DNA from: Candidatus Obscuribacterales bacterium
GTDB taxonomy: Bacteria; Cyanobacteriota; Vampirovibrionia; Obscuribacterales; Obscuribacteraceae
Length of the DNA stretch: 64,000 nt
Assembly: GCA_965228855.1 (NCBI GenBank)
Contig: CBDDIJ010000003.1
Span: 1,184,001 to 1,248,000 of the forward strand
Direction of reading: 5' to 3'
The notes beneath the pieces were generated by a model. That model ran no database searches. It was not told the origin of the DNA and worked only from the letters and a program-made list of their open reading frames with translations. Position 1 is the first letter of the stretch; every line of letters begins with the position of its first letter. Below are positions 15,801 to 34,965 of the stretch, in pieces. Position numbers and translations under genes: made by a program.

Positions 15801-17492
15801 ATGAGCGATGGACTTAACGAAGGACAATCAGAAGGTCTGCGAGACCATCTCAAACAGAAGCGGGAGCAAAAAAAGCAGCAACAACCCCGGCAGCGCCGGC
15901 TTACTTACGTAGCCGGTCTTGATGGGCGCCGCTACGTCAATGACAAAATCCTCCGGAATCTAGAGGTCCAACAACACAATCAGTACGGTGAGTACATCGC
16001 CTACGCGACACCGGAGAACGTAGGCGCCTACCAGGCATACGATCCGTTTCAACCGATTGACCCTAACGAACTTGCGGCGGGCTATACCGGTCACGGTCAG
16101 CAGCAAGAGCAACCTGCGGATGATGACGAATATCACGAGCTTCATCAAGAAGATCTGACCTGTGCGGAGCCACAGCCAGAGCCCCATGGACGAAACACCT
16201 GGGATGAATCAATTGACCCTGCATTGGGAAATGCCGTAAGTTTGACTCAAGCCGAAGTGGCGAATGCTGACCTGGAGAATGCACTTCAGCAAGCTCGGAA
16301 CAGTGTTCATGCGACATATCATGATCTTTCCAAGGGTGCTTTCGACGCCCATGCGCGTATGGAACCAGCACCTGTCCAGTATGAATCACATGGTTACGCA
16401 GCGCAGACCGGAGGCCTGCCGCCTGGTTATGGAGCAGGCTCGACCGGCGATGTACACGCCACCTCATATAATGGCTACCAGGATCCACAAAATCTGCAGA
16501 TGTTTGGCGAGCAGACCCAACAGCAACAAGTTCAATTCGCCCAGCAACAATTGCAACAACAGCAAGCGCATTATGCTCAGCAACAAGCTCAGGAACAGCT
16601 CGAGCAATATCAACAGCAAGCCAGACATTACCAGCAAACTCAGCAGTCTGATGCCAATAAGACCGCGCCGCCCTCAGTGCCAGTTTCCTCCTCGGCTAGC
16701 GAAGGCACCGCAGGATCTCGCGAAGAGTATAAGAAAATGCTAGGTGGTTTGTTCAAAGATGAACTAGACGAGGCACCGCAGGAGGAAGCCATGATTCCTC
16801 AGCCTCCGATGGAGCCGGACTTCTCCGGCGCACCGGAGACGCCTCAGCAACAGCCCCAACTTTCTCCGCAGGAGAGGATCGTCCTTCAAGCGGCGCAGCA
16901 GCAACAGACAGTGGCTCCGGCAGCCGCTCAGCAGGCAGGTCGTCCTCCTCGCAAAACGATTTCTATTCAGAAGAGTTTGCTCGGTGACGATGATGACGAG
17001 TCCCCGCAAAGGGAACCGTCACCGCAGGCGGTGCCTAATCGTCCGAAGCCTAATCGTATTCCAATTAAGATTCAGCGTGTGGCGCCTCCGCTTCCGCAAC
17101 AGCGCAACGATGAAATCTATTTCGAGGATAATGCAAACAGCGGCAAGACGTCTGTGTTTAAAATGCCGAAGGAAGGCGTGGTAAGTTCCAGTCGCGGTAC
17201 TGTGGAGCTTCTCGTGCATAAGGGCGGGCGTATGTTCCGACCACACTATAACGCTGTCGGTATCCTTCTTCGCGTAGACGTAAGCGACGGATTCTCACTT
17301 ATAAAAGGTGATACCGACAAGGCTCACTGGTTGATGACGGACCGCAGCGGAAATCCTCTCGATGAGGAAGAAATTGTCGGAGTTGCATTCGATAAAAAAG
17401 GCAATCTCTGGTACGAGACAATTAGCGGCAAGAAGACTAAGTTTTTAGTTGCAGGCGGCGTTGAAGTGACTGGTGACAGTAAGCAGAGCTAG
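15801..17492 (+). CDS. Gln/Pro-rich low-complexity protein with globular beta-rich C-terminus
   Basis: AGGAG RBS, 563-aa ORF, poly-Q-like centre; no recognisable family. Confidence 0.7.
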   Translation: MSDGLNEGQSEGLRDHLKQKREQKKQQQPRQRRLTYVAGLDGRRYVNDKILRNLEVQQHNQYGEYIAYATPENVGAYQAYDPFQPIDPNELAAGYTGHGQQQEQPADDDEYHELHQEDLTCAEPQPEPHGRNTWDESIDPALGNAVSLTQAEVANADLENALQQARNSVHATYHDLSKGAFDAHARMEPAPVQYESHGYAAQTGGLPPGYGAGSTGDVHATSYNGYQDPQNLQMFGEQTQQQQVQFAQQQLQQQQAHYAQQQAQEQLEQYQQQARHYQQTQQSDANKTAPPSVPVSSSASEGTAGSREEYKKMLGGLFKDELDEAPQEEAMIPQPPMEPDFSGAPETPQQQPQLSPQERIVLQAAQQQQTVAPAAAQQAGRPPRKTISIQKSLLGDDDDESPQREPSPQAVPNRPKPNRIPIKIQRVAPPLPQQRNDEIYFEDNANSGKTSVFKMPKEGVVSSSRGTVELLVHKGGRMFRPHYNAVGILLRVDVSDGFSLIKGDTDKAHWLMTDRSGNPLDEEEIVGVAFDKKGNLWYETISGKKTKFLVAGGVEVTGDSKQS

Positions 17493-18016
17493 AGTGAGGC
17501 TCTTTTTGCCGGCATCACCACATAAGTAAACGGCATCAAATGTTTCGAGCAGAGCTCTATGCCGGTGGGGCAGTATGCTCGTAGAATAAATGGTGGCGTT
17601 ATTGATACCGTTGTTTTCACTGCTATGTCGCCGTCCACGGCGCCCCCGGTAATCGTTGACGGTAAGTCGCGAACCGTTTCTACAATGTCGGCCTGGTCTA
17701 AAACTTTGAGCGGCAAATTGGTGGGCGAGTGTTTTCGAATTACTGCCTGCACTCGTTGATACGGTGTTTGTCCGGGAGTAACTTTCCGACTTGCGCTGGT
17801 GGACTGCGATGAGGGCGGACCGGAAGCTGCTGCCCGTGCTGCATCGCGACAGACGCTGTCATTGATGCTCGCACCCAGAGCAATGAAACCCATATCGATT
17901 CCAGCGAGAATCAAAGGTACTCCTACAACCAAGCCAGCACATAATTCGACTAGACTTTGTCCACGTGCAAGACGCCTTTCGGTCTTTCGAAGTGCATTGG
18001 CTGTCAGGCTTTTCAT
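17489..18016 (-). CDS. TadE/TadF-like pseudopilin
   Basis: Prepilin motif ARG|QSLVE followed by hydrophobic helix and RDAARAAAS; GAGG RBS before ATG at 18016. Confidence 0.8.
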   Translation of the reverse strand: MKSLTANALRKTERRLARGQSLVELCAGLVVGVPLILAGIDMGFIALGASINDSVCRDAARAAASGPPSSQSTSASRKVTPGQTPYQRVQAVIRKHSPTNLPLKVLDQADIVETVRDLPSTITGGAVDGDIAVKTTVSITPPFILRAYCPTGIELCSKHLMPFTYVVMPAKRASL

Positions 18017-18077
18017 TGTAGTTCCTCTCGTAAGTGGGTTGTTCATTGCTTGTCTTCTGATGATGGAGTTCCATCAT

Positions 18078-18752
18078 CTAAATGAAATAGACTTCTTGAG
18101 TCAGGCCTGTTGACTCTGATTCAAGCTTGAATTTGATTTTTGCCGCTTCAGGTGCTTTCTCGCCTGGAGGCATCACCGACATTCTTCGTCTCTGCAATTC
18201 CATCAGGACGTTAGTGTAGGAAGCGGATGGAACGGAAACGGATGCTACTTTGTCATGGTTCTTTAAAATATCCAGGACCAATCGAAGAATTGTGTTGCCT
18301 GCGGCTCTAGATTCGTCGTAGCCTGCGCATGGTGATTGAACTATTTTGATACCAACATTTTTGTCCGCGGGAATTTTGAGCATCGAACTGCGCTCCAACC
18401 CTATCGGTTGCCCATCGTGATACCAGAGGTTTTCGTAAGCTGAAATATCGCTTTTGGCATTCGATGGATAGAATGAAACTGAGGACTTGACGATCGATTT
18501 CAGGGTAAAGCTTTCGTGTTCGAACGTTCTCGGCGTCATGCCCGTCTCCGCTTGAATGACGAAATCCGGCGCTCCATCAGTAGTGGCACTCTTTTCGGCT
18601 TGAACATCGGTAACTGCACCGGTCTTGGACTGAACCTTGACGCTTGCGCCCCCGTTGGCGCATTGTGCGGAGACTCTTGCCGGTAGAACCGTTACAGCGC
18701 CCAGAACTGCTGAACTCAACGTGATACCGAATGCTATTTTTCTGAAGCTCAT
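18078..18752 (-). CDS. Exported hypothetical protein (paralog of 20433-21059)
   Basis: Signal peptide; YENLWYHDGQPIGLER motif shared with 20433-21059. Confidence 0.72.
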   Translation of the reverse strand: MSFRKIAFGITLSSAVLGAVTVLPARVSAQCANGGASVKVQSKTGAVTDVQAEKSATTDGAPDFVIQAETGMTPRTFEHESFTLKSIVKSSVSFYPSNAKSDISAYENLWYHDGQPIGLERSSMLKIPADKNVGIKIVQSPCAGYDESRAAGNTILRLVLDILKNHDKVASVSVPSASYTNVLMELQRRRMSVMPPGEKAPEAAKIKFKLESESTGLTQEVYFI

Positions 18753-18788
18753 TTGCTTTATAATCCTCGAAGTTAATTGTCGTTGCTA

Positions 18789-19310
18789 TCATTCATTGAT
18801 GAAGTATTCTAGTGAACTTGGGTCTTTTGAGAGATTTTCCCACTGAGAATGTGTTCTGAGAGTTATTTTTGCTGGTTTGAATGGCCCCTGGTAGAGTGCC
18901 GAGATTGTGCAGTCGGCTTTGACTTCCAGCGAGTAGATGCACTGTCCGTTGCTTCCGCCCGGTAGCCATTCGGCAGGCAGCACGCCGTTTTGTTTCGTAG
19001 TGCTACGGGCACCATCAGCGGTGGTAACTAAAATAGTGAGCTTTTCTCCACTGACAGTCACACCGCACTGATTCAAAAGTGTCTTGTACCACTGTTCTTT
19101 TGCGAGCATCGTCTGGGCGTCGGAGAATCGTTCACTATGAGCCAATCTGCGGCAGAGCTCAGTCAGGGCACCTTCGCAAATCATGTAACGCACGGGGATG
19201 AAAGACATGTTCAAAAGCGGAAGGAAGATAAACGTGATCAAGAGAAGAAATGCGCTTCCGAACTCTGATATGTTTCCTTTCTTTGATCGGCTTACAAACT
19301 GACTTCTCAT
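18789..19310 (-). CDS. TadE-like pseudopilin
   Basis: KKG|NISEFGSAFLLLITFIFLPLLN; GGAGG RBS before ATG at 19310. Confidence 0.72.
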   Translation of the reverse strand: MRSQFVSRSKKGNISEFGSAFLLLITFIFLPLLNMSFIPVRYMICEGALTELCRRLAHSERFSDAQTMLAKEQWYKTLLNQCGVTVSGEKLTILVTTADGARSTTKQNGVLPAEWLPGGSNGQCIYSLEVKADCTISALYQGPFKPAKITLRTHSQWENLSKDPSSLEYFINE

Positions 19311-19351
19311 AATTCCTCCGAACGTTTTATACAATTTCCTTGATTGGCTCA

Positions 19352-20281
19352 CTATTCTTGTATCCCGGCTCCAGTTGTACTCGCGACTCCGGTTGTTCTC
19401 ATATTGCCACCGGCTTTGAAACCAATTCCGGTATCAACTTTTAGATCTAGAGAAACCTGGGCGACCGACGGAGCGCATCCGGCAAGATGATTTTTTCGCT
19501 TTGCGGCCAGCATCACGCGAGCGGGAGCAATAATGCCGTCAACCGGTGCGGGCAAGCTCGATAGTTGGAAATCCAGGTCGGAATCAACGGTTGGTAAACG
19601 TAGTGCGTCCGGTGTTTCACTTTTGTACAAGATCATGGCCTTCGCATTTTTTCGTTTGTCCGTTATCAACTGCTTTGTTTCATCGTTTTTGTCCAGGTCG
19701 ACAAAACCTTTGAGTTGCTCCACGTTGCTCTCGACTTCGTCGATTTTGCCGAACTTGATGATTGCCAGCCGTGGCGTTCCTACTCTGAGCCAGGGCAGTG
19801 TCATCGCGTAGCTTCCTTTAATGTCGTTGAAACGCTGTTGCATTGCTTGAGTTGCTTCTACTTCGGCCAATTGTGCAACTCGTTTTCTCTCGCTACTAAG
19901 CGTCTTGGCCGATTCGCGAGCTTCGTCCAGGAGTGGCTCGGCAAATGATTTGAGATCCGGAAAGATCTTGATTGTGTCATCGAGGTCTTGTCTCGACGAA
20001 TAGACCAACTGCCTGCAACGTACTGTCATGTTGTTAATTTGACCTATGCGATCTTTGTCGTTGAGTTTCTTTGCACCGGCAAGCGCTATCTCATCCGCAG
20101 AGCATTGCAGTCTGTTGTTGACAAAAAACAAGCTGGCGAAGGAATACCCCATTAACAAGGTCACGCATGCGATTGCAAAACAAACGGATGAAAGAACTAA
20201 AAAGTTCCCTCTTGTATTCCGTCTTTGCGTGGCTTGGACTGTACGCCCTGGCTGGCAGTTTTTTTCGTTGTCCCTGTTCAT
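19352..20281 (-). CDS. TadG-like (Tad-domain) minor pilin
   Basis: TRG|NFLVL hydrophobic helix followed by RLQCSADEIALAGA, the typical TadG N-terminal LQxAADAAALAGA motif. Confidence 0.8.
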   Translation of the reverse strand: MNRDNEKNCQPGRTVQATQRRNTRGNFLVLSSVCFAIACVTLLMGYSFASLFFVNNRLQCSADEIALAGAKKLNDKDRIGQINNMTVRCRQLVYSSRQDLDDTIKIFPDLKSFAEPLLDEARESAKTLSSERKRVAQLAEVEATQAMQQRFNDIKGSYAMTLPWLRVGTPRLAIIKFGKIDEVESNVEQLKGFVDLDKNDETKQLITDKRKNAKAMILYKSETPDALRLPTVDSDLDFQLSSLPAPVDGIIAPARVMLAAKRKNHLAGCAPSVAQVSLDLKVDTGIGFKAGGNMRTTGVASTTGAGIQE

Positions 20282-21088: not shown

Positions 21089-22732
21089 CTACTTTTGCGC
21101 AACCATGGATAGTGCGATGGATACAGCCTTCTCTGCATCCGGCAACCCGAAGCCGAATTCGTCCGTCCGTTGACCGTTGGTTCCGCAGGCTTGAATTAAG
21201 ACTTGTTGAACTTGCAGCGCAGTCAACTTCGGATTTACACGTGTCACTAGTGACGCAACACCTGCCACCAGCGGTGATGCAAATGATGTTCCGTCTACCG
21301 AACTGGTCTTACCTTTTCTTGTGGTGACCTGGATATCTGCGCCGGGACCACAGAAGTCGACGCAGCGTCCGGTGTTCGATCTCCAGCCGTTGTCCTTGAC
21401 GTTTACCAATTGCAGTGGTGCCGCGCCTTTCTTGATATCTTCTTCGCTGACTTGTTTGATCGCTGAGACAGTGTTGATGTAGTCGTATTCCTTGTATTTC
21501 ATCCGCTCGCCGCTATTTCCTGCAGCTACGAATACCAATCCTTGTCGATTGCGATAGAAGTATTTAAATAGCTCGTGCAACACTTCGTGATTGTCGATGT
21601 CGTTAATACCGTCAACACTGATGTTCACTATTCGGACACGGCGCTCGAGTGCCACCACCATTCCAGCTACGAGACCCATGTCATCAACTTTCTTTGAATC
21701 AGTAATCTTAATTGGAACGATATCAAGATCAGGATTTATTCCCACCGTGCCTTTGCCGTTTTCTCGTCCACCTGCACAGGAGGCGACGTTAGTTCCATGA
21801 CCGACATTGTCGCCCGTGCCCATGCTGAGAGTGTGAGCATAGTTGCCCCAGTGCTCGATCTCGTTTTCGAGATCCTCAACGTCGTCGCCGCCGATTCCGG
21901 TTCCTAGAAAACCATCCATCTCATCTTCCAATTTGTCGGCGATTTCTTTGTGGACCCCGGTGACATCAGCACCCCAACTGCCTATTCCGGTGTCTCCTTC
22001 CCACGAGCACCCCGAGTCGAGAATCGCCATGCCATTGTAGACATACCAGTTGTTGGGACCTTTGCGAACTTTATCCATCGCCTCGAACGCATGCATCTTC
22101 GGCAGATGCCACGAGAGCGAAACCGTAGGATCGGTAGGAACATGCGGACCCGCGCACAGATTCATTGATCTGTTTACGTTTACCGCCTGAAAATTCTTGG
22201 TGTCTTTGCCGAGCTTAGCCTCGGTTTGCAAGCCTTTCCCCTTCTCTGCTCGGAGAACGAGAACTTTATAATCACCTTTGCCTATGCTACCAATTACGGT
22301 ACCATGAACATCTTCAAGTGCTTTGTTCAGACTTTCCTTCTCCGCGCCGGCTTTCGGCATGACTAGAAGGATATCGCTGCCTGTGGTCAGATCTGGATTA
22401 TTGTGGCGGTACTGCTTCTTCGGTTTCGCCGCCAGCTTGTTTTGATAGTATTGAGCATATTGCTGTTGCTGACGCATGCGCTGGGCTTGCTGCATCTGTG
22501 CCATCTGCTGAGCTCTCCATTGAGCAATTTGCTGTGGCGTCCACTTGCGCTGGGCCGTTTGTGGCTTTGCCGCCCGGGTCGTCGTACCCGCTTGTGTCTT
22601 CTGAGCGACCGGTGCAGCCGCTGCGCCCATTGAAAACGTTGAAGATAGACCCATGATGGCTGCCATACCCGTTACAGCTGCTTTCCTCAGCTGTTTGCCG
22701 TTTTTTAATAGGTTTAATAACCCGATATCCAT
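21089..22732 (-). CDS. Secreted subtilisin-like serine protease (S8)
   Basis: Catalytic residues AILDSG / GHGTNVA / AAGNSG / GTSFASP; signal peptide and Gln-rich pro-region; GGAGG RBS. Confidence 0.92.
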   Translation of the reverse strand: MDIGLLNLLKNGKQLRKAAVTGMAAIMGLSSTFSMGAAAAPVAQKTQAGTTTRAAKPQTAQRKWTPQQIAQWRAQQMAQMQQAQRMRQQQQYAQYYQNKLAAKPKKQYRHNNPDLTTGSDILLVMPKAGAEKESLNKALEDVHGTVIGSIGKGDYKVLVLRAEKGKGLQTEAKLGKDTKNFQAVNVNRSMNLCAGPHVPTDPTVSLSWHLPKMHAFEAMDKVRKGPNNWYVYNGMAILDSGCSWEGDTGIGSWGADVTGVHKEIADKLEDEMDGFLGTGIGGDDVEDLENEIEHWGNYAHTLSMGTGDNVGHGTNVASCAGGRENGKGTVGINPDLDIVPIKITDSKKVDDMGLVAGMVVALERRVRIVNISVDGINDIDNHEVLHELFKYFYRNRQGLVFVAAGNSGERMKYKEYDYINTVSAIKQVSEEDIKKGAAPLQLVNVKDNGWRSNTGRCVDFCGPGADIQVTTRKGKTSSVDGTSFASPLVAGVASLVTRVNPKLTALQVQQVLIQACGTNGQRTDEFGFGLPDAEKAVSIALSMVAQK

Positions 22733-22971
22733 TTGAGTAAACCTCCTGAAGTGTGTTTTGCGTGATTGGCATCGCCATCAACGCCATAATCACGAGAATA
22801 GAGGTCATTCGTCCCAACTTTGTCCTTTAGATGTCCCTGAAATGTCTCCGGTTGCATCCAAATCGTAAAGTTAGCTATATAAAGATTGAATGTTGTTTGA
22901 AAGCGCAGATCTGGGAAAATTTCCAGTGTAGAGCTTTCCGCCTTCGTCCCGTCCAAATTGAGGAGCCCGAC

Positions 22972-23262
22972 ATGAATAATGGTTTTAGAAGATTCTCGTC
23001 TCTGTTACTATCCGCAGCTGTACTCGTGCTCGGGATTGCGACTACCCCTCAGGCAGCTGAGGCTCGCCACTGCAAGAGTGGATACAAAGCCTATAAACGC
23101 TCTTCCAACTGTGGGCCAAACTACGGGCACCGCGCGTACAAGGTGAACAGAAAGAGCAACAGAATTGCTTATAAGGAAAACAAACGCGCAATTAAGTCAA
23201 ATGCTGTAAACGCTCAACGTGCCAACAAGAGCTACAGAAAAGCAGTTAGACGCTCGCGTTAA
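22972..23262 (+). CDS. Small secreted highly basic protein
   Basis: GAGGAG RBS, signal peptide ending AAEA, K/R/Y-rich mature part with two Cys. Confidence 0.7.
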   Translation: MNNGFRRFSSLLLSAAVLVLGIATTPQAAEARHCKSGYKAYKRSSNCGPNYGHRAYKVNRKSNRIAYKENKRAIKSNAVNAQRANKSYRKAVRRSR

Positions 23263-23304
23263 GCGCTGTTAGCTTGGGTTTCTTTAGTTGGGATAAAACA
23301 GATT

Positions 23305-23331
23305 AGAGGATCACCGTGTGGTCCTCTTTTG
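23305..23331 (+). terminator. Rho-independent terminator
   Basis: AGAGGATCAC-CGT-GTGGTCCTCT followed by T run, between convergent genes. Confidence 0.7.
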
Positions 23332-23353
23332 TTATGACAAACTTCCTCTACAA

Positions 23354-23707
23354 TTAATCTCGTTCTTTCAGAGCTTCCTCAATATCGCGAGTAAGTTTTC
23401 TGTACTCGATTTCTACGTCAGGATCAAGAGTTAAACCGGCTACGGCTGTTGCTGTGGCCATATAGTCGAGTTCTTGTTTTCGCGCGATCATTTTCTCCAG
23501 GCGATTCTTTGCTGCCGCTCTTTCCTCGGAACTTACTGGGCTCTGATTGTGTTTAATAAGTGTGACGCTGCCGTCGGGCAAAACGCTGATATCGCGCCGG
23601 TCAAATCCCATTGATATGAGGCGTTCGATTTCCGCTTTTGTCTTTGCGGATTGTCCTTTTGTGTCGTCAGAATGCGCGTTAATGGCTACTTTCCTCTTTC
23701 GGAGCAC
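23354..23707 (-). CDS. Small hypothetical protein immediately downstream of the giant protein (candidate immunity/partner)
   Basis: 117-aa ORF starting 6 nt after the stop of 23714-29182; start codon uncertain. Confidence 0.6.
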   Translation of the reverse strand: MLRKRKVAINAHSDDTKGQSAKTKAEIERLISMGFDRRDISVLPDGSVTLIKHNQSPVSSEERAAAKNRLEKMIARKQELDYMATATAVAGLTLDPDVEIEYRKLTRDIEEALKERD

Positions 23708-23713
23708 TTGGAT

Positions 23714-26700
23714 TTATCTTTGCATTACCGGAGTATATGCCGGTGGCGTTCGTAAATCGACACGCTGCTCCCGACCGAGTTCTTCGCTGAAGCGATCCCA
23801 GATTTTTCGAGCGCGGTCGAGTTCTTCCGGTGTCGCTGTGGAGTAGTCGATTAAGTCAGGATTTTCTTTTGTGCCTGTCCAGCCGGGCACCTTGTCGATC
23901 GCTCCTTCTGTGGGTAACCCCAGCTGGCTTCGTCCCTCTGCTGAATTTATCCATTGATTGACTCTGCTCTGAGCCGATTCGATGTCGCCTTGCATCCGAG
24001 CTGACTGCTGTTGAACGTACGCACGTGTTTGCTCGGTTGCTACACCTAGCTTGCCTTTCTCCGGAGCGCCAAGGAAGTCTCGCTGGCTTTGTTTCCAGCT
24101 ATCGACTGATGAGATCTGGGATGGGTTTTCAGGATTGCCGTAAAGCACGTGTCGGTCCTGGAAGAAAACGGCTTTGCCTGGACCGCGCAAACCTATAATT
24201 TTGCTCAGTCCGCCTGGACCTGCGTAGTTGTCGATTCCGTCAGCATCGATTAGCCCGCGTGAGAATTTATTCCAGCTGTTTCCTTCGTTGGGCACGTACC
24301 AGTAGTCTAAACCGGTGCGTTGCAAAAGAGCCTGTTCATCGGGCGTGAGGTTGACTGCTTTGGCGCCTGGGGGACCGCCCGGAACATGTATTAAGCCTTC
24401 TGGACCGAGTGCAAATGGATTTGAGATTTTTGCTTTCAAGCTATTGAAGGCGGTCGTTTCAGCATCGGTCATTACGCGATTTTCAGCCTTTATTGAACCT
24501 TGAATTGCTCCACCATAAATCATTGCCATAAACTCCGGAGGTGCAACCTGGTGTTCGAGAATAGCCTGTCGAATACCCGCGATGCGATCGGCGGACATGT
24601 CCGCAAGGTGAGTCTTCGCGAAGTGTTCGAATGCGGTCGCTCCGTCCACGTTGTGAGTGGTGAAATTGAACTTGGTCTTCAAACCGTCAGAGAACATGGC
24701 CGACAGAAGTAGATCTTGTGTCTCTGCTTTTGAGAAATTGTTACGAGCTGCATAGTCAACTGCGGCGCCGAATTCGCGCTGCGTGTGTTTCCAGTTGATG
24801 GCTTGCTCCGGATCGATTTCGACCATTCTTGTGCCGTGCTCGCGAACAGTTTGCAGTCCATCAAGAATTTGATTGCGCTCTGTCTCACTCATGCCGAGCT
24901 TTTTCGCAAGGCTATCGAATTCCTCTCCGACGTTTTTGCCGTCGATAGTTTTCCAACTGTGCAAGTCTTCTACTAGATCCGGGCGCACGCGATCAAATTC
25001 GGACTTCGCATAAGTTGGAAATTCGCTTTCGATAGGATTGCCTTTGGAGTCGACGATCGCTCCATGCTCATTAATGGTTTGACCACGCTCGTTAACTAGC
25101 CTGCCTTGACCGTTTACAAGTTTTCCATCTTCGTTGATTAACTGTCCACGCTCGTTTACAAGCCGTCCCTGCTGGTTGATCAACTGACCTTTTTCGTTGC
25201 GCCTGAGATTCGCTTGTTCTGGTGTGCCACCGTTATTGGTGCTAACGGGAGCTGCGTCAGTCGTCGGTTTCGCTGCGTCAGTTTGTCCGCTGGGACTGCT
25301 GTCTGTCTGACCTGTTGGCGCTGCGTCTGTTTGAGTTCCTGATTTGGTTCCGTGCGTTCCATCCTTTGGCTGCGGGATAGCTTCCGTAGTGGTGCGAGTA
25401 GCGGTGACAGTTTCTCCGGGGGTAGGATCTTTCACTCTCGGACCGTCGATTATTTTGTCTCCATCCATTAAGCGTCCACGGTCTGTTATAGTTTCGGTCG
25501 TGCCGTTGGCGCGGCGCACCGTTACAGGATCTCCCGGTGAGCCATGGACCACGACGTCGACTGCACCAGTCGCCGCATTAATTTCTTTGCTTACGTTCAA
25601 AACATATTTGCCACCGGCGGCGATACCTTTGAATGCCACAGGCATGATCAAACCGACCGCGCCGCCAATCATAGTCTGATCTCTAAGACTCGTCAGATCA
25701 AGACCGTGTTCGTTGAAAGGTGCGTCCGCGAGTGTTGCTACCGCATTGCCTCCCGCGCCAATTAAGGAGCTTTCTCCCATCTGTTTCAACATTCGGACAG
25801 CTACTTGTTTTCCGCCTTCAGCGGCTTGTTGATTCAAAGCCTGCATGCCAACTTCGATTGCTGTTCCATAATTGCGAGATACACTGCCGACAAGTTGAGT
25901 AGCTAAGGCATTTGTCGCATCTGCTCCCAAACTTGGAGCCGCTTGCTTTAAAACGGCAAGCGCTTCTTGCTGCCCGAAGTTTTTGCCTGCCTGCATCAGT
26001 GATTCGGCAAGGGCTCTCTCTACGGCTGCCCGTTCTGCTGCCTGTAATCCGGCCACGGAGCCAGCGACTGCTCCGTCGGCAAGTATTGCTTTTGCTCCTT
26101 GACCGAAGACGGCTGTAACCCTTCCGACTGGAGGAATCGCAAAAATCAAACCGCCCGCAACGGCACCATGGACGATATCACGCATCATGTGGCTGCGATC
26201 GTAGTCATTGCCAGTGAATGCCATCTTCGTGCCTACCGTGACAGCCGCTCCTGCAGTAGCAGCGACGCCGGCCCATGTTGCCAATGCAGCTACCGACATC
26301 CCGGCAGTGAATGGTGCGGTCGCCAGTGCTGCTGCCGTGATCGTAGCAGTTATCACCATCTCAGCTAGCTTCTCCTTCGACTGTTTGTGTTGCTCCCATG
26401 ATTGATTGAAATATTCGTCGAGCGCCTTCTGTTTGTCAGCGGGCAAAGTTTGGTAAATGCGCTGATATTCTTCCAGTGAATTCGCGGTCTGGTCGATAGA
26501 GCGTTGCATCGTGAGGTATGTTCCGTCCGCGGCTGCACCGCTGTCGCTGCGAAGGGACTTCCAGACATTGTCGTAGAATGTTTGCCTGCCATCGCCTGTT
26601 TCCGGTGTAAGGAGTCTCTTGAATTCGTCGACTTGTTTATCGTCCACTTGCGATAACATCGCGTCGTCCAAGTCCCTGTTGTACTTGAGTGCGAATTCGT

Positions 26701-29182
26701 CTTTGGCTTCCTGCAGCTTACGCAAACCTTCCGGACTCTTGTGCATCTGTTCAAGTTCGGCTTTAAAGTCTTCGGGCTTTGTTTCGATACCCCTTATATC
26801 ACTGGTAGTCATTTGTATCCTGTCTGCCAGTGAAAGTTTGCCACCATTTGCGGCACCATTGTCGATAATCTGCCGCTCGGCTTCACTGAAGCGTGTCCGT
26901 GTCGCAGCACGCTCTTCCGGACTTGCGTTCGCTGCATACTCAATTGTCGATTTGCGATCCATACCGAGGTTCAATCGGTCTTGGACTGTTAATTTACCGG
27001 TTGCTATGAAGTTGTCGACGTTATACCTTGTGTTTCTATTCCACTCATTTGGAGGCATGTGATTTGCCTGCTGTCGGAGATAGCTTTCCGAAATTACACT
27101 TCTGAGCGCCTTGTCCTCCGGCGTCATCTGATCCCGAGGTTTAGATAGTCTGGTTCTCAAACCGAGGTCCGACTCCAAGGCTCTCTGGGCTTGAGACAGG
27201 AGCTCGGGCCGTTTACCACCTTCCGTAGCGAGCTTCAGCAGTTTGTCCGTTTCATCAAGTTGTGGAATCTTTCCTGTTTCAGCAGCCTTGTCGATCATTC
27301 GCAGGGCAAAGGACTGCTCAACTTTGCTGAATTCAGACTCGTTCCGAATAAAATCGCGCAGCTGCTGTGCGAATTGAGGATTCGCCTTCATGTTTGCGGC
27401 GTCGGTCGCCGTCATCGATGAAAAGTTTTTGAGGACATTGTTGGCATCATAGCTGGTGCCAAACCAGAGGAAATCGGTGCCTTTGTTTTCGGCAATCGTC
27501 TCAGTCAACGTGCGATGAATATTCTGAGAGTCCTGGTAGGTTGGCTGTGCTGCTTTATCGCGAAGCATCTGCATGATGCGCGCGCTCTCTCCCTCGTCCG
27601 CGTACTTGGCAAGAGACGTCTCAATCTCGTTGAGAAACTGTTTTCCGTTCGCCGGATCGCGGAGAAGGTTGTAATCTTTCTCGCTTAAATTTTCAGCACG
27701 AGTGAGCAAATCGTTGTGCTTGTGACCGGAACCGAGACCGAACGGTCCCCAAGCCTCTGAGTGGGTACTAGCCATGTCGCTGATGACGGTGTCTCGACCA
27801 TATTTCAGAAAAGATTCTGCAACTGTTGCCTCTCTGGGCGAAAGTTTCTGACTGAAAATTTTGTGGATTTTATCGTAGTAATCCTTGGCTTCTTTTTCCT
27901 CTGGCGTTTGTGGCGCTCTGTTGTCGCCTGTAAGTTTCGCGCCCAGAATGAATTGTTGTCGCTCGGAGTCTGAGGCATTTTTCGCCGCCAGGTTGATGTT
28001 GTCCTTAGCATCAAGAATCCATTTGCCGGTGTTCTCTGTGGTGATGGTTTTGAGCGATATTCGCCCTTCCGTTAGATAGTCCTTCGCGACCGGATCCAGT
28101 AAGTCGTTAACGTTGAGTTTTGCTCGTCCAACCTGAACGTCTCCGCGAGCACTCGCTCGATCGTATAGCCTTTCCACACCGGCTGAACTCCAACTGCCTT
28201 TGTGAAATGCGACAGTCAGATCCCTCATCATGCCCTTATCTGCGAGAATTTCTCTGCGAGCTTGCACCGTAGATGGTGCATCTCCACGTAAAACCTCACC
28301 GAGGAGCCTCGCATCATGCGAGTCAATGGCTAGTCTCGTAAGATCTTTCACATCCTGAGGTGTTCGTTCGTCCACACCCTTGCGCAATATTTCCAGCGAT
28401 TTTATAGTTTGCGGCGTTACGTCTCGACCGGCTTCGCGTGTCGCCTCTTGCCAGGTTTTTCCGTAGTCTCTTTTGAAATTGCTTTCTAGTTCTTTTACCT
28501 GATCTTTATTGAGAGTCTCGAACACTGCTCTGATCGCGACGTTTCCCCGACTGCTGTCTTCTCTTGTCTGATTGATTGCGACCATCAGCGCGCCTGCGTC
28601 ATTTGTTTTGCCGTCGGTCCGATTCATTATCGACGTGATCTTTGCCTGCTCAACGCTCTCCGGACCGTCAAACTTGCTTGCGATTTCGCGTCGCAGCTCA
28701 CTGGATTTGAAATCCGAAGTGTGATCTATTCCAGACTTATCGCTATTTGCGGCAGACAGCTGCCGAGCTTTGCCTTTATCCCCAAATTTTTCTTCGTACA
28801 CTTGCTCAAGCGCGCGACGATCTGAATGGCTCAAAGGCTCTAAAATCCGAAAAACCTTATCTTTGTCCGGACTATTTTTCAGTCCCAGGAAGGAGGTCCG
28901 CGTCAGCGCCTCGTGCAATTCGTCGGCGGAGCGCTCGAGTGTTTTGCGGTCGAGCGTTGGCGGTTTCGTCGCCTCCGGTTTTGTGATTGATTCCAAAGCG
29001 CCGGTCGGCTTGGGCTGCTCGGGCTTAACATCCTTGAGGGCGCTGGAATCTCTGGGCGCTGTAGCCTCTTGAGACAGTGTTGTTCGGGTATCAGGTGCGT
29101 CGACCGTCGTCGCCGGAGTTTCATGCGGTTTGTCAGCCGGCTTTTCAGTCGTCGGCTCCGCTTTCGGTTTCGCACCCACCAT
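23714..29182 (-). CDS. Giant multidomain putative effector: annexin-like repeats, hydrophobic segment, 7-aa repeats, HD-like C-terminal domain
   Basis: ~1820-aa ORF, GAAGAGGG RBS before ATG 29182; motifs detailed in findings. Confidence 0.8.
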   Translation of the reverse strand: MVGAKPKAEPTTEKPADKPHETPATTVDAPDTRTTLSQEATAPRDSSALKDVKPEQPKPTGALESITKPEATKPPTLDRKTLERSADELHEALTRTSFLGLKNSPDKDKVFRILEPLSHSDRRALEQVYEEKFGDKGKARQLSAANSDKSGIDHTSDFKSSELRREIASKFDGPESVEQAKITSIMNRTDGKTNDAGALMVAINQTREDSSRGNVAIRAVFETLNKDQVKELESNFKRDYGKTWQEATREAGRDVTPQTIKSLEILRKGVDERTPQDVKDLTRLAIDSHDARLLGEVLRGDAPSTVQARREILADKGMMRDLTVAFHKGSWSSAGVERLYDRASARGDVQVGRAKLNVNDLLDPVAKDYLTEGRISLKTITTENTGKWILDAKDNINLAAKNASDSERQQFILGAKLTGDNRAPQTPEEKEAKDYYDKIHKIFSQKLSPREATVAESFLKYGRDTVISDMASTHSEAWGPFGLGSGHKHNDLLTRAENLSEKDYNLLRDPANGKQFLNEIETSLAKYADEGESARIMQMLRDKAAQPTYQDSQNIHRTLTETIAENKGTDFLWFGTSYDANNVLKNFSSMTATDAANMKANPQFAQQLRDFIRNESEFSKVEQSFALRMIDKAAETGKIPQLDETDKLLKLATEGGKRPELLSQAQRALESDLGLRTRLSKPRDQMTPEDKALRSVISESYLRQQANHMPPNEWNRNTRYNVDNFIATGKLTVQDRLNLGMDRKSTIEYAANASPEERAATRTRFSEAERQIIDNGAANGGKLSLADRIQMTTSDIRGIETKPEDFKAELEQMHKSPEGLRKLQEAKDEFALKYNRDLDDAMLSQVDDKQVDEFKRLLTPETGDGRQTFYDNVWKSLRSDSGAAADGTYLTMQRSIDQTANSLEEYQRIYQTLPADKQKALDEYFNQSWEQHKQSKEKLAEMVITATITAAALATAPFTAGMSVAALATWAGVAATAGAAVTVGTKMAFTGNDYDRSHMMRDIVHGAVAGGLIFAIPPVGRVTAVFGQGAKAILADGAVAGSVAGLQAAERAAVERALAESLMQAGKNFGQQEALAVLKQAAPSLGADATNALATQLVGSVSRNYGTAIEVGMQALNQQAAEGGKQVAVRMLKQMGESSLIGAGGNAVATLADAPFNEHGLDLTSLRDQTMIGGAVGLIMPVAFKGIAAGGKYVLNVSKEINAATGAVDVVVHGSPGDPVTVRRANGTTETITDRGRLMDGDKIIDGPRVKDPTPGETVTATRTTTEAIPQPKDGTHGTKSGTQTDAAPTGQTDSSPSGQTDAAKPTTDAAPVSTNNGGTPEQANLRRNEKGQLINQQGRLVNERGQLINEDGKLVNGQGRLVNERGQTINEHGAIVDSKGNPIESEFPTYAKSEFDRVRPDLVEDLHSWKTIDGKNVGEEFDSLAKKLGMSETERNQILDGLQTVREHGTRMVEIDPEQAINWKHTQREFGAAVDYAARNNFSKAETQDLLLSAMFSDGLKTKFNFTTHNVDGATAFEHFAKTHLADMSADRIAGIRQAILEHQVAPPEFMAMIYGGAIQGSIKAENRVMTDAETTAFNSLKAKISNPFALGPEGLIHVPGGPPGAKAVNLTPDEQALLQRTGLDYWYVPNEGNSWNKFSRGLIDADGIDNYAGPGGLSKIIGLRGPGKAVFFQDRHVLYGNPENPSQISSVDSWKQSQRDFLGAPEKGKLGVATEQTRAYVQQQSARMQGDIESAQSRVNQWINSAEGRSQLGLPTEGAIDKVPGWTGTKENPDLIDYSTATPEELDRARKIWDRFSEELGREQRVDLRTPPAYTPVMQR
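25033..25198 (-). repeat. Eight tandem 7-aa (21-nt) repeats [N/D]-x-x-G-x-[L/T/I/P]-[I/V] within the giant protein
   Basis: NEKGQLI NQQGRLV NERGQLI NEDGKLV NGQGRLV NERGQTI NEHGAIV DSKGNPI. Confidence 0.85.
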
Positions 29183-29468
29183 GGTATGCACCCTCTTCCG
29201 GAGAAGTGTCGCGATCTACATATACTATTTACCCAGGCGAAATCTAAAAGGGCTCTTGACAAGGGGTGATTTAAGCTTTGCCGGGAGTAAATACTTTCGG
29301 GCCTCTGAGGGTGCTGAACGTGCCCGTCAGATTAGTTGGTACTACGATGAACTTTGTTGGCGCCGTTGTAAACAGGGCGAAGATTCGGACCGGATTTTCG
29401 TCGAACCCCGTTTCCGATTTCGTGAGATGCTGCCACTGCATTTTGAGCTCGGTTCGACATGGCCAAAA

Positions 29469-29978
29469 TCACGGCGACGCCTGCCACTTGATTGATAAAA
29501 AGATTTTGTCCACTAATTTCTCGTGCAGTTCTAATTGACCGGTCGGTGCTGAAAAGTATAGGTTTTGAACCTTCCGGCCTTTGCCGCCATTATCTATGAA
29601 ACATGACATGGTAGAGAGCCCCTGTTCAAGCCAATTACCCTTGATGCGAATCACTCTTCGTTCGTTGACATAAACAGTATCAGCAAGTTTGATTTCGAAA
29701 ACTTCTTTGTTCGATAAACCTTCAATAACCGGCTCCAAATCCTGGATTTCAGTTTCCGATAGCTCGTGAAATGGCGCATAGAGAGCAGCCTGAAATTTTT
29801 CCGCATCGCCTCTACTTAATTCCACATCGCGATATAGGTGGCAGAAGAGGATATCTTTGTTGGTTGCGTCTCGAAAAACAGATATCTGGCGTTCGCCCAG
29901 ATCTAGTCGTTCCTCCGCGTGCCATTCATCGGGAATCTCAAACTGGTGAACAACGCCAAGTTTCTCTTCGATAATCAT
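29469..29978 (-). CDS. Hypothetical protein with PsbP/Mog1/DcrB-like fold pattern
   Basis: FEIPDEW at the N-terminus, beta-meander (VNERRVIRIKGNW...VQNLYFSAP) and terminal LVDKIFLSIKW, the usual layout of PsbP/DcrB-like proteins. Confidence 0.6.
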   Translation of the reverse strand: MIIEEKLGVVHQFEIPDEWHAEERLDLGERQISVFRDATNKDILFCHLYRDVELSRGDAEKFQAALYAPFHELSETEIQDLEPVIEGLSNKEVFEIKLADTVYVNERRVIRIKGNWLEQGLSTMSCFIDNGGKGRKVQNLYFSAPTGQLELHEKLVDKIFLSIKWQASP

Positions 29979-30037
29979 TGTTCTTCCCCTTTGCGTCACC
30001 TGCGAGTGTCGATCGACTTGCGTTCAAACTTAGCTAC

Positions 30038-31000
30038 TCAAGCTGTTTTATTGGAGGCAATCTGAGCAGACATCGTATGTGATTTACCTGGCGGTAACTC
30101 GATTGCATTTACAAGAGCGTTTGCCGTTTCAACACAAACCATTTGTTGCCATACGTCATCACCTAGATCCGCTAGTTTCGCAGACAGCTCGATCCACGGG
30201 TTCCAAACCACGGTTGTCGCAGAATTCTCTTTGCTAATCACCAGGCGTCGCTTCTTGAGCGGGTCTTGAATATAGACTGTTGATTTTGTGTTTATGTATG
30301 GTCTGTCAGTTTCACCGGTTAGTGCAAGAATGTTTTCAGTTTGAGTCTTATGTTTAAACTCATCAGTTTTGTCCAGATAATCTGTATTAACTAAACCGTA
30401 AATACTGATTTGTCTGGCATCTCCTACCGAAAAGTATGAGTGTAGCGCTTCTTCGAAAATGAACGGTTCGCTCGAAGTGTTTTCCACGGTCAGGCGAAGA
30501 GCGAGATTTTTTCCGAACACGATTTTGTATTTCAAAACAAAATTGTCGAAGCCTAGAGCACGCGATGCCTCGTTTGGTTCCAAAGTTAGAGTCATATTTA
30601 CTTTGCCATCAGATACGGTGGCTTCGCTGATCTGCCAAGTGGAAGTTCTCGCGAAGCCGTGCGAAGGACCGTCTGTCCGCGTGGAATACTGGTTTGCTGT
30701 CCGTGAGCCGAACCAGGGGAAAATAATTGGTACTCCGCCTCGAATGACTTTGCCAGGCTCGAACAGGGACTTGTCACTCAGGAAGAACACCGGTTCTGAA
30801 CCGGATGGGCACCACTCAACAAGGTGAGCTCCCTGAAGAAATATTTTTGCGTTACAGGGATCTGTCGTGATTGTCGCGTAGATTAAGCCGAATTCGTTCT
30901 CTGCGAAACTTAGTTTGCCCGGTATGGCGAATTTGTCAATGTATTCTTGCAGCAAAATGCACCTGTCGAAACTGATGGATAAACGTTTTACCGTCCCCAA
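30038..31000 (-). CDS. D-hexose-6-phosphate mutarotase (aldose 1-epimerase family, YeaD-like)
   Basis: QGAHLVEW, IRGGVPIIFPWFG, HGFART, EEALHSYF, VVWNPW, MVCVET; start uncertain. Confidence 0.92.
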   Translation of the reverse strand: MGTVKRLSISFDRCILLQEYIDKFAIPGKLSFAENEFGLIYATITTDPCNAKIFLQGAHLVEWCPSGSEPVFFLSDKSLFEPGKVIRGGVPIIFPWFGSRTANQYSTRTDGPSHGFARTSTWQISEATVSDGKVNMTLTLEPNEASRALGFDNFVLKYKIVFGKNLALRLTVENTSSEPFIFEEALHSYFSVGDARQISIYGLVNTDYLDKTDEFKHKTQTENILALTGETDRPYINTKSTVYIQDPLKKRRLVISKENSATTVVWNPWIELSAKLADLGDDVWQQMVCVETANALVNAIELPPGKSHTMSAQIASNKTA

Positions 31001-32292: not shown

Positions 32293-34014
32293 CTAAAGAA
32301 GGCTAGGGACTGCGATCCCCAGTGAATAGATTTCAGTCCAGCGTTTCACTCGAAGATCGCCCAGGCATGAGTTGTAACCCGATCCCGGAGTCCAGTACAC
32401 ATCTTTATCCCAGAGACCCCAGCCAATTGGGAGACCGGGAACCATAAGGCACTTTGGAAGCGGCTGTCCAGATGCGCTATTGTAGAGCGCTGCCGGACAA
32501 TCAGCATCGTCAACGAGCTTCATCTCGGTTCCATCTGGTTCTTCGTTTTGTTTGAGTAGGAGCCACGGTGCCTTCACTAGAGCAAGATATCTCGGTAAGA
32601 CTTCTATGTGTTCTCCGTCCGAAGAAAACATGTAGAACTCGCGTTGATCGGCCAGCAGATACAAGATCGTAAGCGGGCTGTTCAAGCTGTCGTGAACCTC
32701 ATCCACGGTCACAACTTTGCCAACTTTGCCAACCATCTCATTGGCGCGATTGCATAAATAGGCTTCGATCTTCTCCTTGCCTTCGTCCGGAAGCCCAAAA
32801 ATTATCTGGTCTAGCGTGCGAGCGATAACATCGCCGCCTACTTCAACTTCTCCGGAACTTACATAAGAGCAGAAGGCTCCTCCGAAGGGCATTCTCTTCG
32901 CTCCCATCGTTTCCAGTTTATATCCGTATTTTTCAGGATCTCCAAACTCAACCTTCTTGGTTGGACCGAATGGGAAGAAGTACCAATGGACATACATCTC
33001 GTCCAGTTTTATACGGACGAAGGAATGGGGAAGCGACATCCTAAAAGTTTGACCTGGATTGGTTAATACCCATGATGTGGCTTTCTGACCGGCTTTGCCG
33101 CCCTTTGATTCTGCAATTCCCTCTCCTGAAAAAGCATTTGGAACAGGCTTGTCCCAACCTTGAAGAGGTTTTGCTTTAAGCAAGTTGTCTCCGAATTCGC
33201 TTCCGGACACCATGCGTGGTGTCTCGTCGTATACGAAAGGAACTTGCCAGAAATTGCGATCCCCTAGCTGAATTGGCTTATAGCCACTAAGGAAGTAGAG
33301 GTCCTTTCCGCTGGACGGTACGTTCTTCCGTGATGACTTCATTACGAGGTCAGGCATCTGGAAGTTTGGCGGCAGTGAATATTGTGGCGGAGCTACCGTG
33401 ACATTACTTTCGCGACCGCGTTGCATGTAGGAAGTTTGCCAGTTGTTTCCTCGCAAAGCTTTTGTACGAATGTCAGTTCCGAGCATTCTCACAGAGTTTT
33501 TGCCGGCTAATTCGTCGAAGAAATTGTAGAGATTTTCCTTCTGTTGCAGTTTATTAGCCAGGCGATTACTTATTGATTGGGCACCCTCAAACGCTTTTTG
33601 CGCATTTGCCTTTCCCTGTCCGCCAGCGCCTTCACGCTCTGCTGCTTCCGCGTTGATTCCTATCTGGAGTGCCTTTGCCCATATGCGATTGACACGGTGC
33701 AAATTGATTTCTTTCAAATCGGACAGACCGAGAGTCAAACTAGCCAGGTAATCTTCACCATGCGTGGTGTCATTTGCGACATCAGCGAAAATGAGTTCAT
33801 TGGCAGACGGCATGAGGGGGACGCTGACATCATCTGCAACTCGTTTTCCGACATTGAGCATGCCCGCATCGGTTGCGTTCTTCGTTTCATTCTGTCCACC
33901 CATATACATGGTCAAGCCGAAAAAGGCGATCCCGATAAGCAATAGAACAAACGCCAGAACAGCGCCAAGTGAGATGGAGCCGCGGGTTCGGTGTTTCTTA
34001 CTCAATAGCTTCAT
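32293..34014 (-). CDS. Large TadG-like pilus-tip protein with extended C-terminal domain
   Basis: TRG|SISLG hydrophobic helix then ETKNATDAGMLNVG (Tad motif); AGGAG RBS before ATG 34014. Confidence 0.72.
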   Translation of the reverse strand: MKLLSKKHRTRGSISLGAVLAFVLLLIGIAFFGLTMYMGGQNETKNATDAGMLNVGKRVADDVSVPLMPSANELIFADVANDTTHGEDYLASLTLGLSDLKEINLHRVNRIWAKALQIGINAEAAEREGAGGQGKANAQKAFEGAQSISNRLANKLQQKENLYNFFDELAGKNSVRMLGTDIRTKALRGNNWQTSYMQRGRESNVTVAPPQYSLPPNFQMPDLVMKSSRKNVPSSGKDLYFLSGYKPIQLGDRNFWQVPFVYDETPRMVSGSEFGDNLLKAKPLQGWDKPVPNAFSGEGIAESKGGKAGQKATSWVLTNPGQTFRMSLPHSFVRIKLDEMYVHWYFFPFGPTKKVEFGDPEKYGYKLETMGAKRMPFGGAFCSYVSSGEVEVGGDVIARTLDQIIFGLPDEGKEKIEAYLCNRANEMVGKVGKVVTVDEVHDSLNSPLTILYLLADQREFYMFSSDGEHIEVLPRYLALVKAPWLLLKQNEEPDGTEMKLVDDADCPAALYNSASGQPLPKCLMVPGLPIGWGLWDKDVYWTPGSGYNSCLGDLRVKRWTEIYSLGIAVPSLL

Positions 34015-34034
34015 CGGTATTGCTCCTAAGTTTT

Positions 34035-34442
34035 TCAATGAGCAACGACTGGTTCGGTCGCCTGGGCTAAAAATGTATAGCTTGCGCCAATTCCCGGGAC
34101 TGGAATTGGTAGCGAAACGTGCATTTTGGTTGTGGCTGACACGGTTTGCTTCGGCACATAGTCAAGACTTTTGAGACTCAATTCGGTGATGAAGCCGGCG
34201 TTGCCTTTTTTGTTTTCTTTGAGAGAGTTCTGAGCTGCTTCGACAGCTTTTGCTAAAGACGATTGGCTTGCAGCTGCGCGGGCGGCGTTTTTCGCGGCGC
34301 CGTCATTTACACCATTGGCTAAAACCATTACTATTAAATCAATCAGCGCCATTGCGATCACGATGATTATCGTACCGACGGCAACCGCTTCAATCATTTG
34401 CGAGCCGCACTTTCGACGTTTTCTCCTTCGATCATCCGGCAT
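34035..34442 (-). CDS. TadE/TadF-like pseudopilin
   Basis: KCG|SQMIEAVAVG..., KNAARAAAS, HVSLPIPVPG. Confidence 0.8.
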   Translation of the reverse strand: MPDDRRRKRRKCGSQMIEAVAVGTIIIVIAMALIDLIVMVLANGVNDGAAKNAARAAASQSSLAKAVEAAQNSLKENKKGNAGFITELSLKSLDYVPKQTVSATTKMHVSLPIPVPGIGASYTFLAQATEPVVAH

Positions 34443-34965
34443 TTTCAGGGTTCTCCATTGGTCGTTCCGACTCTATGTGAAGCGGCACAGGAGTATTGAG
34501 TGCTGGGACCTTCAAGATTGGAAACGGCACGAACACTGCAGGATTGCAAACGACAGTTGTTTTGACCATGACATACTTGCTGGTCGATGATGCGTCACCG
34601 CCGGAGATGCCATCTCTATAACTAATTTCGGTGACCGGTCGACCGGCAACATTTACAAATTTGCCTAAACCACTGTCATGCCACTGCGCAGGAATTCCTT
34701 TTTTTACCATCCCATTGGGATCCTGAGCTTGTTCGGCGGGCACCAGGGATGCCTCATGAACCTGGTTGTTGTTTAGAACCTTAACTACGCCGTAGGCGAA
34801 ACAAATGGAGACCAGGTCCAGAACAGGAAAGAAGAAGAGTAAAAGCAGAATGAAAAGTGCGGGACCGAACTCCGCGAGCGTTGCAGCGCAGATGTTTCGC
34901 ACCTTCGCTTTGCGTCGGTGTTTGGTAACACTCAGCTTGAATTGTCGCTTCGAATTGCGGATCAT
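34432..34965 (-). CDS. TadE-like pseudopilin
   Basis: Basic leader then ICA|ATLAEFGPALFILLLLFFFPVLD; PFPILKVP. Confidence 0.75.
   Translation of the reverse strand: MIRNSKRQFKLSVTKHRRKAKVRNICAATLAEFGPALFILLLLFFFPVLDLVSICFAYGVVKVLNNNQVHEASLVPAEQAQDPNGMVKKGIPAQWHDSGLGKFVNVAGRPVTEISYRDGISGGDASSTSKYVMVKTTVVCNPAVFVPFPILKVPALNTPVPLHIESERPMENPENAG

Follow-up and report, generated by a model that had tools for sequence, protein, structure and literature searches.

Polymorphic toxin systems, as described in the available part of Zhang et al. (2012; PMC3482391), combine a constant N-terminal carrier with variable enzymatic cargo and a linked partner gene, and toxin and partner are exchanged by recombination. 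In toxins of the Photorhabdus virulence cassettes and extracellular contractile injection systems (PVC/eCIS), an annexin domain has been proposed as a membrane-breaching accessory ahead of the enzymatic toxin, and some of these toxins have transmembrane segments (PMC3482391; PMC3894181; accessible parts of both). Here we describe a related locus in 64,000 nucleotides of DNA from a Candidatus Obscuribacterales bacterium (assembly GCA_965228855.1, contig CBDDIJ010000003.1, positions 1,184,001 to 1,248,000; this whole stretch is hereafter the window). Its central gene, on the minus strand at 23714..29182, encodes a giant protein (P0001), and a small partner gene lies next to it. Judged from its sequence and that of its relatives, the locus is a modular carrier-cargo gene with exchangeable alleles, and we lean towards the explanation that it encodes an antibacterial polymorphic toxin with an HD-fold cargo and an adjacent hairpin inhibitor. 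Annexin-plus-toxin proteins as a kind are known from PVC/eCIS (PMC3482391, PMC3894181, PMC8213781, in the portions available); what appears to be new is the carrier, the HD cargo and the hairpin. No description of these three was found in the literature searched, with subscription papers and supplements outside its scope, and the supplement of PMC3482391 could list related architectures.

With polymorphic toxin systems the locus shares the constant carrier, the variable cargo, the linked small partner and exchange in blocks, and possibly an adjacent PsbP/MOG1-like gene. It differs in that the carrier fits none of the secretion signatures tested, the cargo is often a string of several domains, and there are no orphan cassettes at the locus. 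The order of annexin ahead of enzymatic toxin is shared with PVC/eCIS toxins; however, those are led by a DUF4157/PVC metallopeptidase, whereas the present carrier and genome have no eCIS_core, sheath or baseplate match (the control for the genome eCIS_core search was blank). MARTX toxins carry several unrelated enzymatic domains behind a membrane-inserting carrier and shuffle them between strains. The P0001 family presumably resembles them in its multi-domain cargo string behind such a carrier, but P0001 has no RTX repeat or CPD protease match, and partner genes are present.

The open reading frame (ORF) of the giant runs uninterrupted from ATG 29182 to TAA 23714. A sequence-only reading of the window had given it 1820 amino acids (aa); the frame is genuine, but the length is 1822. 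The stretch 22800-30200 was found entire, with zero differences, in one contig each of two runs from two studies, possibly the source of the present DNA. The protein is laid out as follows.

23714..29182, minus strand: giant carrier-plus-cargo protein P0001, 1822 aa, intact in two contigs.
28958..29182, minus strand: low-complexity leader rich in Pro, Thr, Ala and Lys (aa 1-75), from composition and hydropathy; a putative export signal.
28448..28939, minus strand: two annexin repeats (about aa 82-245, limits approximate), from a family profile against annexin VI and Pfam Annexin in homologs.
26393..28447, minus strand: conserved helical carrier region (about aa 246-930), from conservation, with a possible third annexin repeat inside.
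25610..26359, minus strand: four Gly/Ala-rich hydrophobic helices (aa 942-1191), from hydropathy, kept in paralogs.
25208..25450, minus strand: Thr-rich linker (aa 1245-1325, 23% Thr), from composition.
25037..25204, minus strand: eight 7-aa repeats of the LVNERGQ type (aa 1327-1382), from their pattern.
23717..25003, minus strand: HD/PDEase-fold cargo domain (aa 1394-1822), from predicted fold, structural search and invariant residues.

Most of this order had been read correctly from the letters. The leader (P 17%, T 16%, A 13% and K 12%) contains no hydrophobic signal stretch, so composition and hydropathy agree with the proposed disordered start that has no signal peptide. The Gly/Ala-rich hydrophobic block resolves into four stretches (aa 942-961, 963-984, 1007-1027 and 1170-1191) of moderate hydrophobicity (Kyte-Doolittle peaks 1.5-1.7), which likely serve membrane insertion or translocation. 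The Thr-rich linker and the 7-aa repeats are likewise present by composition and pattern, the count of eight units combining six from a script pattern with two found by eye. These repeats, which fall under the DUF3659 cut-off in P0001, also stand ahead of each HD copy in the tandem-HD protein P0002. The linker zone is the least conserved part of P0001 (72% over aa 1201-1325 against L005, the locus of a same-genus sister genome). "Several" annexin-like repeats come down to two that are clear, covered by a five-member family profile that matches annexin VI at E=6e-11, and one more, at about aa 780-845, is possible from a weak match of the same profile. P0001 as a single sequence gives no match to Pfam Annexin, while its homologs exceed the cut-off. 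Its annexin loop reads LGLKNSPDKD where paralogs have GIGTDKD or GAGTDEQ; GxGT is, we assume, the annexin calcium-loop motif. The helical carrier region at about aa 246-930 has no family match, and searches of Pfam, NCBIfam and PADLOC returned nothing significant for the giant, its partner or the gene upstream.

Leader, annexin repeats, helical region and hydrophobic helices make up the carrier, about the first 1190 aa; P0001 has the part from about aa 70 to 1190 in common with three paralogs in the same genome, which is 8.2 Mb and 95% complete. A carrier profile matches 66 of 72 other genomes of the same family (f1, which we take to be Obscuribacteraceae), mostly at three or more scored places, compared with 1 of 178 genomes from other families of the class; the two loci closest to P0001 among named genomes are from Candidatus Obscuribacterales. 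The cargo behind this constant part changes. Two of the same-genome paralogs have wholly different tails, one with FHA and apparent protease motifs (the latter read by eye), the other with PRTase-CE and a tyrosine phosphatase behind RHS repeats. Domain scans of 18, 31 and 15 proteins, selected from the longer matches, found zeta toxin, PGDYG repeats, NUDIX, TPR-S, a papain-fold toxin, DSP/PTP phosphatases, PRTase-CE, FHA, LysM and RHS on the carrier, and L081 and P0160 join it to zeta with no Pfam or motif sign of the HD domain. HigB occurs in an HD-bearing giant that has no carrier. The homologs thus swap their C-termini (HD, zeta, FHA, phosphatase, PRTase and RHS cargo) behind a shared N-terminus, as the polymorphic-toxin interpretation had predicted.

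The nature of carrier and cargo bears on the intended target. Annexins are mostly eukaryotic and have been proposed as markers of anti-eukaryote eCIS effectors (PMC8213781, available portion), and the related Vampirovibrio preys on Chlorella (PMC4451040, available portion). It is conceivable that the effectors are meant for a eukaryote, either host or prey (an alga or protist, for example), into which the carrier brings them, and that the hairpin serves as a chaperone, or as an inhibitor before delivery, instead of conferring kin immunity. The many stand-alone HD copies that have no partner would be in keeping with this. We regard this as quite unlikely. Zeta toxins act on a peptidoglycan precursor, some carriers bear LysM, both of which point to bacterial targets, and a dedicated adjacent inhibitor is typical of interbacterial systems.

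Several further observations concern carrier-like proteins. An 8543-codon open frame of the source genome (G000:C3:2827640-2853271) contains part of the carrier (profile E 1e-42), and the longest family members reach 13,497 codons (G245). Within the giant of the window, 370 bp (26735-27105) are matched by a 3.2-kb contig of depth 642 in run X4, which continues unlike. Many giants have as neighbours the proteins of another hydrophobic, Gly/Ala-rich family whose C-termini vary (TPR, NADAR-like, LRR; L083:3979-5409, L002:3955-4998, L096:12057-14423), possibly a second, smaller carrier family; a loose profile finds 62 ORFs of this kind in the source genome, a count inflated by TPR and low complexity.

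The last 429 aa of P0001 define a family with 144 representatives at 50% clustering, and none of 53 members matches Pfam. The sequence-only reading had recognized an enzyme-like C-terminal domain here; it folds confidently when an alignment is supplied (pLDDT 94, pTM 0.93; a single sequence gives a poor pLDDT of 46), and in other proteins it is often internal to the cargo string rather than terminal. A wide structural search returned HD/PDEase-fold proteins in all of the top 50 rows, an assignment that we presume for those titles not stating the fold. The best match is 2pq7 (Z 12.6, rmsd 3.5, 172 aligned residues), and others are YpgQ (5dqv, Z 12.4), class I phosphodiesterases (PDEs; Z 10-12), the Legionella SidE PDE (Z 9.8), SidE/SdeD (Z 9.6-9.8) and YedJ (3gw7). 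The Legionella effectors in this list would suit delivery to eukaryotes, and the high rank of class I PDEs would suit a role in nucleotide signalling. A Z of about 12 is not by itself decisive for a helical protein, but the uniform match list and the motif register agree, and the predicted model supports an HD/PDEase fold for this domain. Foldseek against the PDB and viral libraries gave no match at E<=0.001 (top 2qgs, probability 0.96, E 0.48), and a PDB sequence search with the HD alignment was blank.

The family shares with the HD/PDEase superfamily, besides the fold (Z 9.6-12.6), the motif order H...xD..K...H...EH...D. It departs from it in identity (at most 19%), in having Ser (or Ala) for the His of "HD", in an invariant Glu four residues after the first His, and in the added motifs QxxPP and KIxxxRGP. 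All of 95 copies keep H1466, E1470, D1499, K1502, H1510, H1544, Q1545, D1648, N1652 and K1661, a set that includes the remaining expected metal ligands (first His, Asp, two further His and distal Asp). Ser1498 occupies the position of the His in "HD": Ser-Asp is found in all 42 giant-borne copies and in 42 of 53 stand-alone ones, and His in none of the 95. When P0001 is compared with HD proteins of its own genome, H1466, S1498-D1499, K1502, H1510 and E1543-H1544 align in exact register with H, HD, K, H and xH, at a weak E of 0.07. We infer that E1470 replaces the lost His ligand. The cargo is likely a metal-dependent phosphohydrolase.

HD-family members occur in 86 of 104 f1 genomes and in 0 of 250 other genomes of the phylum. 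Most f1 genomes also carry a stand-alone copy of 520-600 aa; that of the source genome, L004 (G000:C5:1433359-1435083), has 574 aa and belongs to a type found in most family genomes without a hairpin gene. The domain further appears on unrelated N-termini (P0004, P0005 and P0010, at 60-66% identity) and in P0093, a protein of 4023 aa led by eCIS_core; 16 of 48 HD-bearing proteins of at least 1100 aa, some of them fragments, lack the carrier. In two papers on conflict systems, as far as their available parts go, HD-type hydrolases are described as enzymes that break down toxic alarmones, not as cargo, and the first 300,000 of the 357,715 characters of PMC3482391 contain no mention of "HD domain", "HD fold", "HD superfamily" or "zeta". 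Those alarmone-degrading enzymes presumably act as antitoxins.

The gene next to the HD domain is the candidate inhibitor.

23354..23707, minus strand: small partner gene, encoding 117 aa if it starts at GTG 23707 and 109 aa if at ATT 23683; its product is predicted to inhibit the HD domain.
23366..23506, minus strand: two-helix hairpin core of the partner, where all confident predicted contacts lie.

A small ORF beginning 6 nt after the giant had been reported. That spacing holds if GTG 23707 is used, but ATT 23683, which has an AGAGGA ribosome site and is kept in L005, is an equally plausible start. Orthologs of the partner appear to begin with non-ATG codons (ATT, TTG, GTG or ATC) behind a ribosome site (window 23683-23707, L005 20334, L006 18637, L014 and L016). 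Outside this orthologous group, the N-terminal half of the partner was seen in one place, behind zeta in the HD-less giant L081, and it may be zeta-related. The two-helix hairpin is elsewhere a separate gene of 55-70 aa. Over non-redundant loci, such a gene lies near 26 of the 30 HD-bearing giants with enough flank (12 more are short of flank, 4 of them positive), near 6 of 50 stand-alone HD genes (9 more short of flank), near 2 of 5 unclear cases and near 0 of 7 giants without HD. These counts are overstated, since the seeds of the profile came from the neighbourhood of giants and the loci share ancestry. Three of the six positive stand-alone genes fall in a giant clade and are probably cut contigs, while the positives as a whole are spread over several separate clades of the HD tree.

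Prediction of the complex of HD domain and partner gave an ipSAE of 0.81, compared with 0.00 for the best control, with contact agreement of at least 98% and a partner pLDDT of at least 73. Among solved pairs, 116 of 157 score this high, and among mismatched pairs 2 of 215, counts that apply roughly to our own alignments. The predicted contacts (HD residues 1504-1507, 1550-1565, 1661-1674 and 1685-1702) adjoin the invariant EHQxxPP and K1661/R1666, and the hairpin is predicted to bind the HD cleft next to EHQxxPP and KIxxxRGP. Neighbourhood counts and complex prediction together bear out the proposed link between the small ORF and the C-terminal domain. ESM Atlas had no usable match for the partner, and a metagenome scan with the partner alignment found nothing.

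The hairpin is found in two further settings. Tandem copies, two or three, occur at L107 and L108. It is also the N-terminal domain of Ser/Thr-kinase-like proteins, in operons that run from giant to accessory gene to hydrophobic TPR protein to kinase. The source genome has a hairpin-less member of this operon kinase family (G000:C5:1002826-1003815, E 2e-61). Hairpin-led kinases in giant operons raise the question whether the giants ever leave the cell. They could instead stay inside, anchored to the membrane, and serve as signalling hubs. The HD domain would then hydrolyse a nucleotide messenger, with the hairpin as a regulatory subunit also able to recruit a Ser/Thr kinase. The FHA, GGDEF and phosphatase cargo, the class I PDEs high in the fold search, the near-universal stand-alone HD paralog in the family and the failure to find a classical injection machine would all fit. 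We nevertheless consider such hubs unlikely, because zeta, HigB and papain-fold toxin cargo, the eCIS-core carrier and the exchange of alleles in blocks are signatures of conflict systems.

Between the same two neighbouring genes, the locus holds different alleles: HD in the window, HD-HD in genomes G002, G005 and G006, and HD-PGDYG-zeta in L005 and L006 (P0002 is a further HD-HD protein and P0003 a further HD-PGDYG-zeta one). The window is 5.0 kb shorter than L005 at this point. In this single genome pair, the fourfold-site distance is 0.10-0.22 for six flanking genes and 0.07 for codons 1-150 of the giant, but 0.43-0.72 for the rest of the giant and 0.50 for the partner gene, while the HD domain keeps 90% amino-acid identity despite saturated synonymous sites. 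The rise sets in beyond codon 150 and extends across the partner gene, which makes it likely that gene body and partner were exchanged together, as one block, in one of the two lineages. In a quick carrier tree, rooted by distant rows and without a clade test, the zeta-bearing L006 is basal and the window groups with L005 and P0003, a branching order that is more simply explained by loss of the zeta tail. Swapped C-termini, HD domains on unrelated carriers, a linked partner gene and block exchange all accord with the polymorphic toxin layout that was proposed from the sequence.

One reading of the small gene, as a zeta antitoxin orphaned by a clean 5-kb deletion, was dropped. The hairpin stands behind HD at loci that have no zeta, its predicted binding partner is HD, and the synonymous divergence indicates allele exchange and not a recent deletion. 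Some tailed loci have further cargo ORFs (L082 and L100).

The genome offers several candidate export machines for the giant. It holds three secretins and five pilus-type ATPase matches, around which we recognize what we take to be a type IV pilus, a Tad system, a type I secretion pair and, on contig C4, a Trb cluster. The last lies at about 55000-66000 of G000:C4, a 182-kb contig, and may be a mobile element or contamination; its members are presumably TrbB, TrbE, a coupling protein and a relaxase. A search of the genome for the VirB4 domain (PF03135) was negative, yet it missed this cluster, so that type IV secretion may still be available. Searches for gp19 and eCIS_core gave no match, but their controls were blank as well; P0001 itself has no match to eCIS_core or PAAR. 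The failure to find an export machine would also agree with self-directed defence, in which phage infection would set free a membrane-bound toxin-antitoxin array that kills or arrests the cell carrying it; zeta and HigB are classical toxins of toxin-antitoxin systems, and TPR-S and PRTase-CE are among the cargo. Yet PADLOC has no match for the giant, partner or upstream gene, the locus is not in an evident defence island, and RHS repeats and the eCIS-core carrier imply export, so that we rate this as very unlikely.

Two features flank the pair.

29469..29978, minus strand: upstream accessory gene, 169 aa, from family conservation and neighbourhood; a possible chaperone or adaptor.
23305..23327, no strand assigned (listed for plus): terminator-like hairpin of 10 bp that follows the partner gene and is flanked by convergent genes.

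The upstream gene, on which the sequence-only reading was silent, is part of the system. Its family has 8 copies in the source genome and, among the genomes searched, is confined to this order: it is found in 28 of 30 f1 genomes, 2 of 2 of the sister family and 0 of 118 others, and a copy lies within 2.5 kb in 19 of 26 giants with flank on both sides. ESM Atlas ties the protein loosely to DcrB-like clusters (feature score 0.93, 112 of 256 features shared), which makes PsbP/DcrB-like a weak lead; Pfam DcrB matches 0 of 17 members, and no PDB match was found by profile. DcrB/DUF1795 (Eag) proteins chaperone transmembrane segments of type VI secretion system (T6SS) effectors (PMC7773334, available portion), and PsbP/MOG1-like genes flank toxins (PMC3482391, available portion), and for these reasons a chaperone role is a lead, by analogy. 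The gene order of small gene, effector with transmembrane segments and immunity gene is shared with those T6SS effectors, but P0001 has no PAAR, the genome no T6SS marker and the upstream protein no Pfam DcrB or PDB match. Two other copies of the upstream family are directly preceded by large proteins that have unstructured leaders (G000:C3:2061082-2063910 and C5:1070539-1072992) and that may be further cargo.

Farther out, two clusters of genes that resemble TadE/TadG pseudopilins in motif and hydrophobic N-terminal helix flank the locus on the minus strand (17489-20281 and 32293-34965); the upstream cluster is syntenic in L005 and not in L006. A subtilase gene (21089-22732, minus strand; Peptidase_S8, E 4e-26) lies downstream in the window, L005, L013 and L016.

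These parts can be assembled into a proposed sequence of events. The giant would leave the producer by a signal-peptide-independent route, for which Tad, type IV pilus and type I machinery are candidates present in the genome. Its annexin repeats would dock on the target membrane, and the Gly/Ala helices would insert in it, perhaps after the upstream protein had kept them shielded. Once in the cytoplasm of the target, the HD domain would break down a nucleotide or phosphodiester substrate, while in the producer the hairpin protein would cap the domain and keep it inactive.

Several points weigh against an antibacterial toxin. Genome profile searches with positive controls found no FHIPEP, VipB, sheath, baseplate J, Phage_base_V or WXG100, so that no marker of the type III secretion/flagellar gate, T6SS, type VII secretion, tail sheath or VgrG type was found in this 95%-complete genome. 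Much of the cargo (FHA, GGDEF, phosphatases), together with the neighbouring kinases, is of a signalling type. No downstream orphan toxin-immunity cassettes follow the P0001 gene. The second HD giant of the genome (L003) has no adjacent hairpin, and the genome holds one hairpin gene only. Stand-alone HD proteins with identical invariant residues are present in most family genomes, mostly without a hairpin gene; HD activity is therefore not always self-toxic, or is controlled in trans.

The antibacterial toxin remains the explanation to which we incline. A far broader version of it is doubtful: an undescribed, family-wide Obscuribacterales delivery system that uses no known injection machine and sends annexin-led multi-enzyme carriers into other cells. 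The HD domain, its metal site rebuilt as Ser-Asp/Glu, would then be the first polymorphic toxin with an HD fold. Control would lie with a 50-residue hairpin that acts alone, in tandem or by directing a Ser/Thr kinase, of which it is a domain, to the toxin, and phosphorylation by this kinase would silence the toxin.

Three separate things appear to be new here. The HD-fold enzymes form a family that Pfam does not cover, a minimal hairpin, the predicted inhibitor, serves a second time as a kinase-targeting module, and the carrier would be exported by a route that matches none of the tested injection systems. The HD-hairpin pair, being small, lends itself to a toxin-antitoxin test in E. coli. The source lineage is a non-photosynthetic relative of cyanobacteria, and its Obscuribacterales relatives are largely uncultured, with a poorly known lifestyle. 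With a carrier that is usually multicopy, present in most genomes of one family and nearly absent elsewhere in the class, that family would have a weapon or interaction system by which it could be defined.

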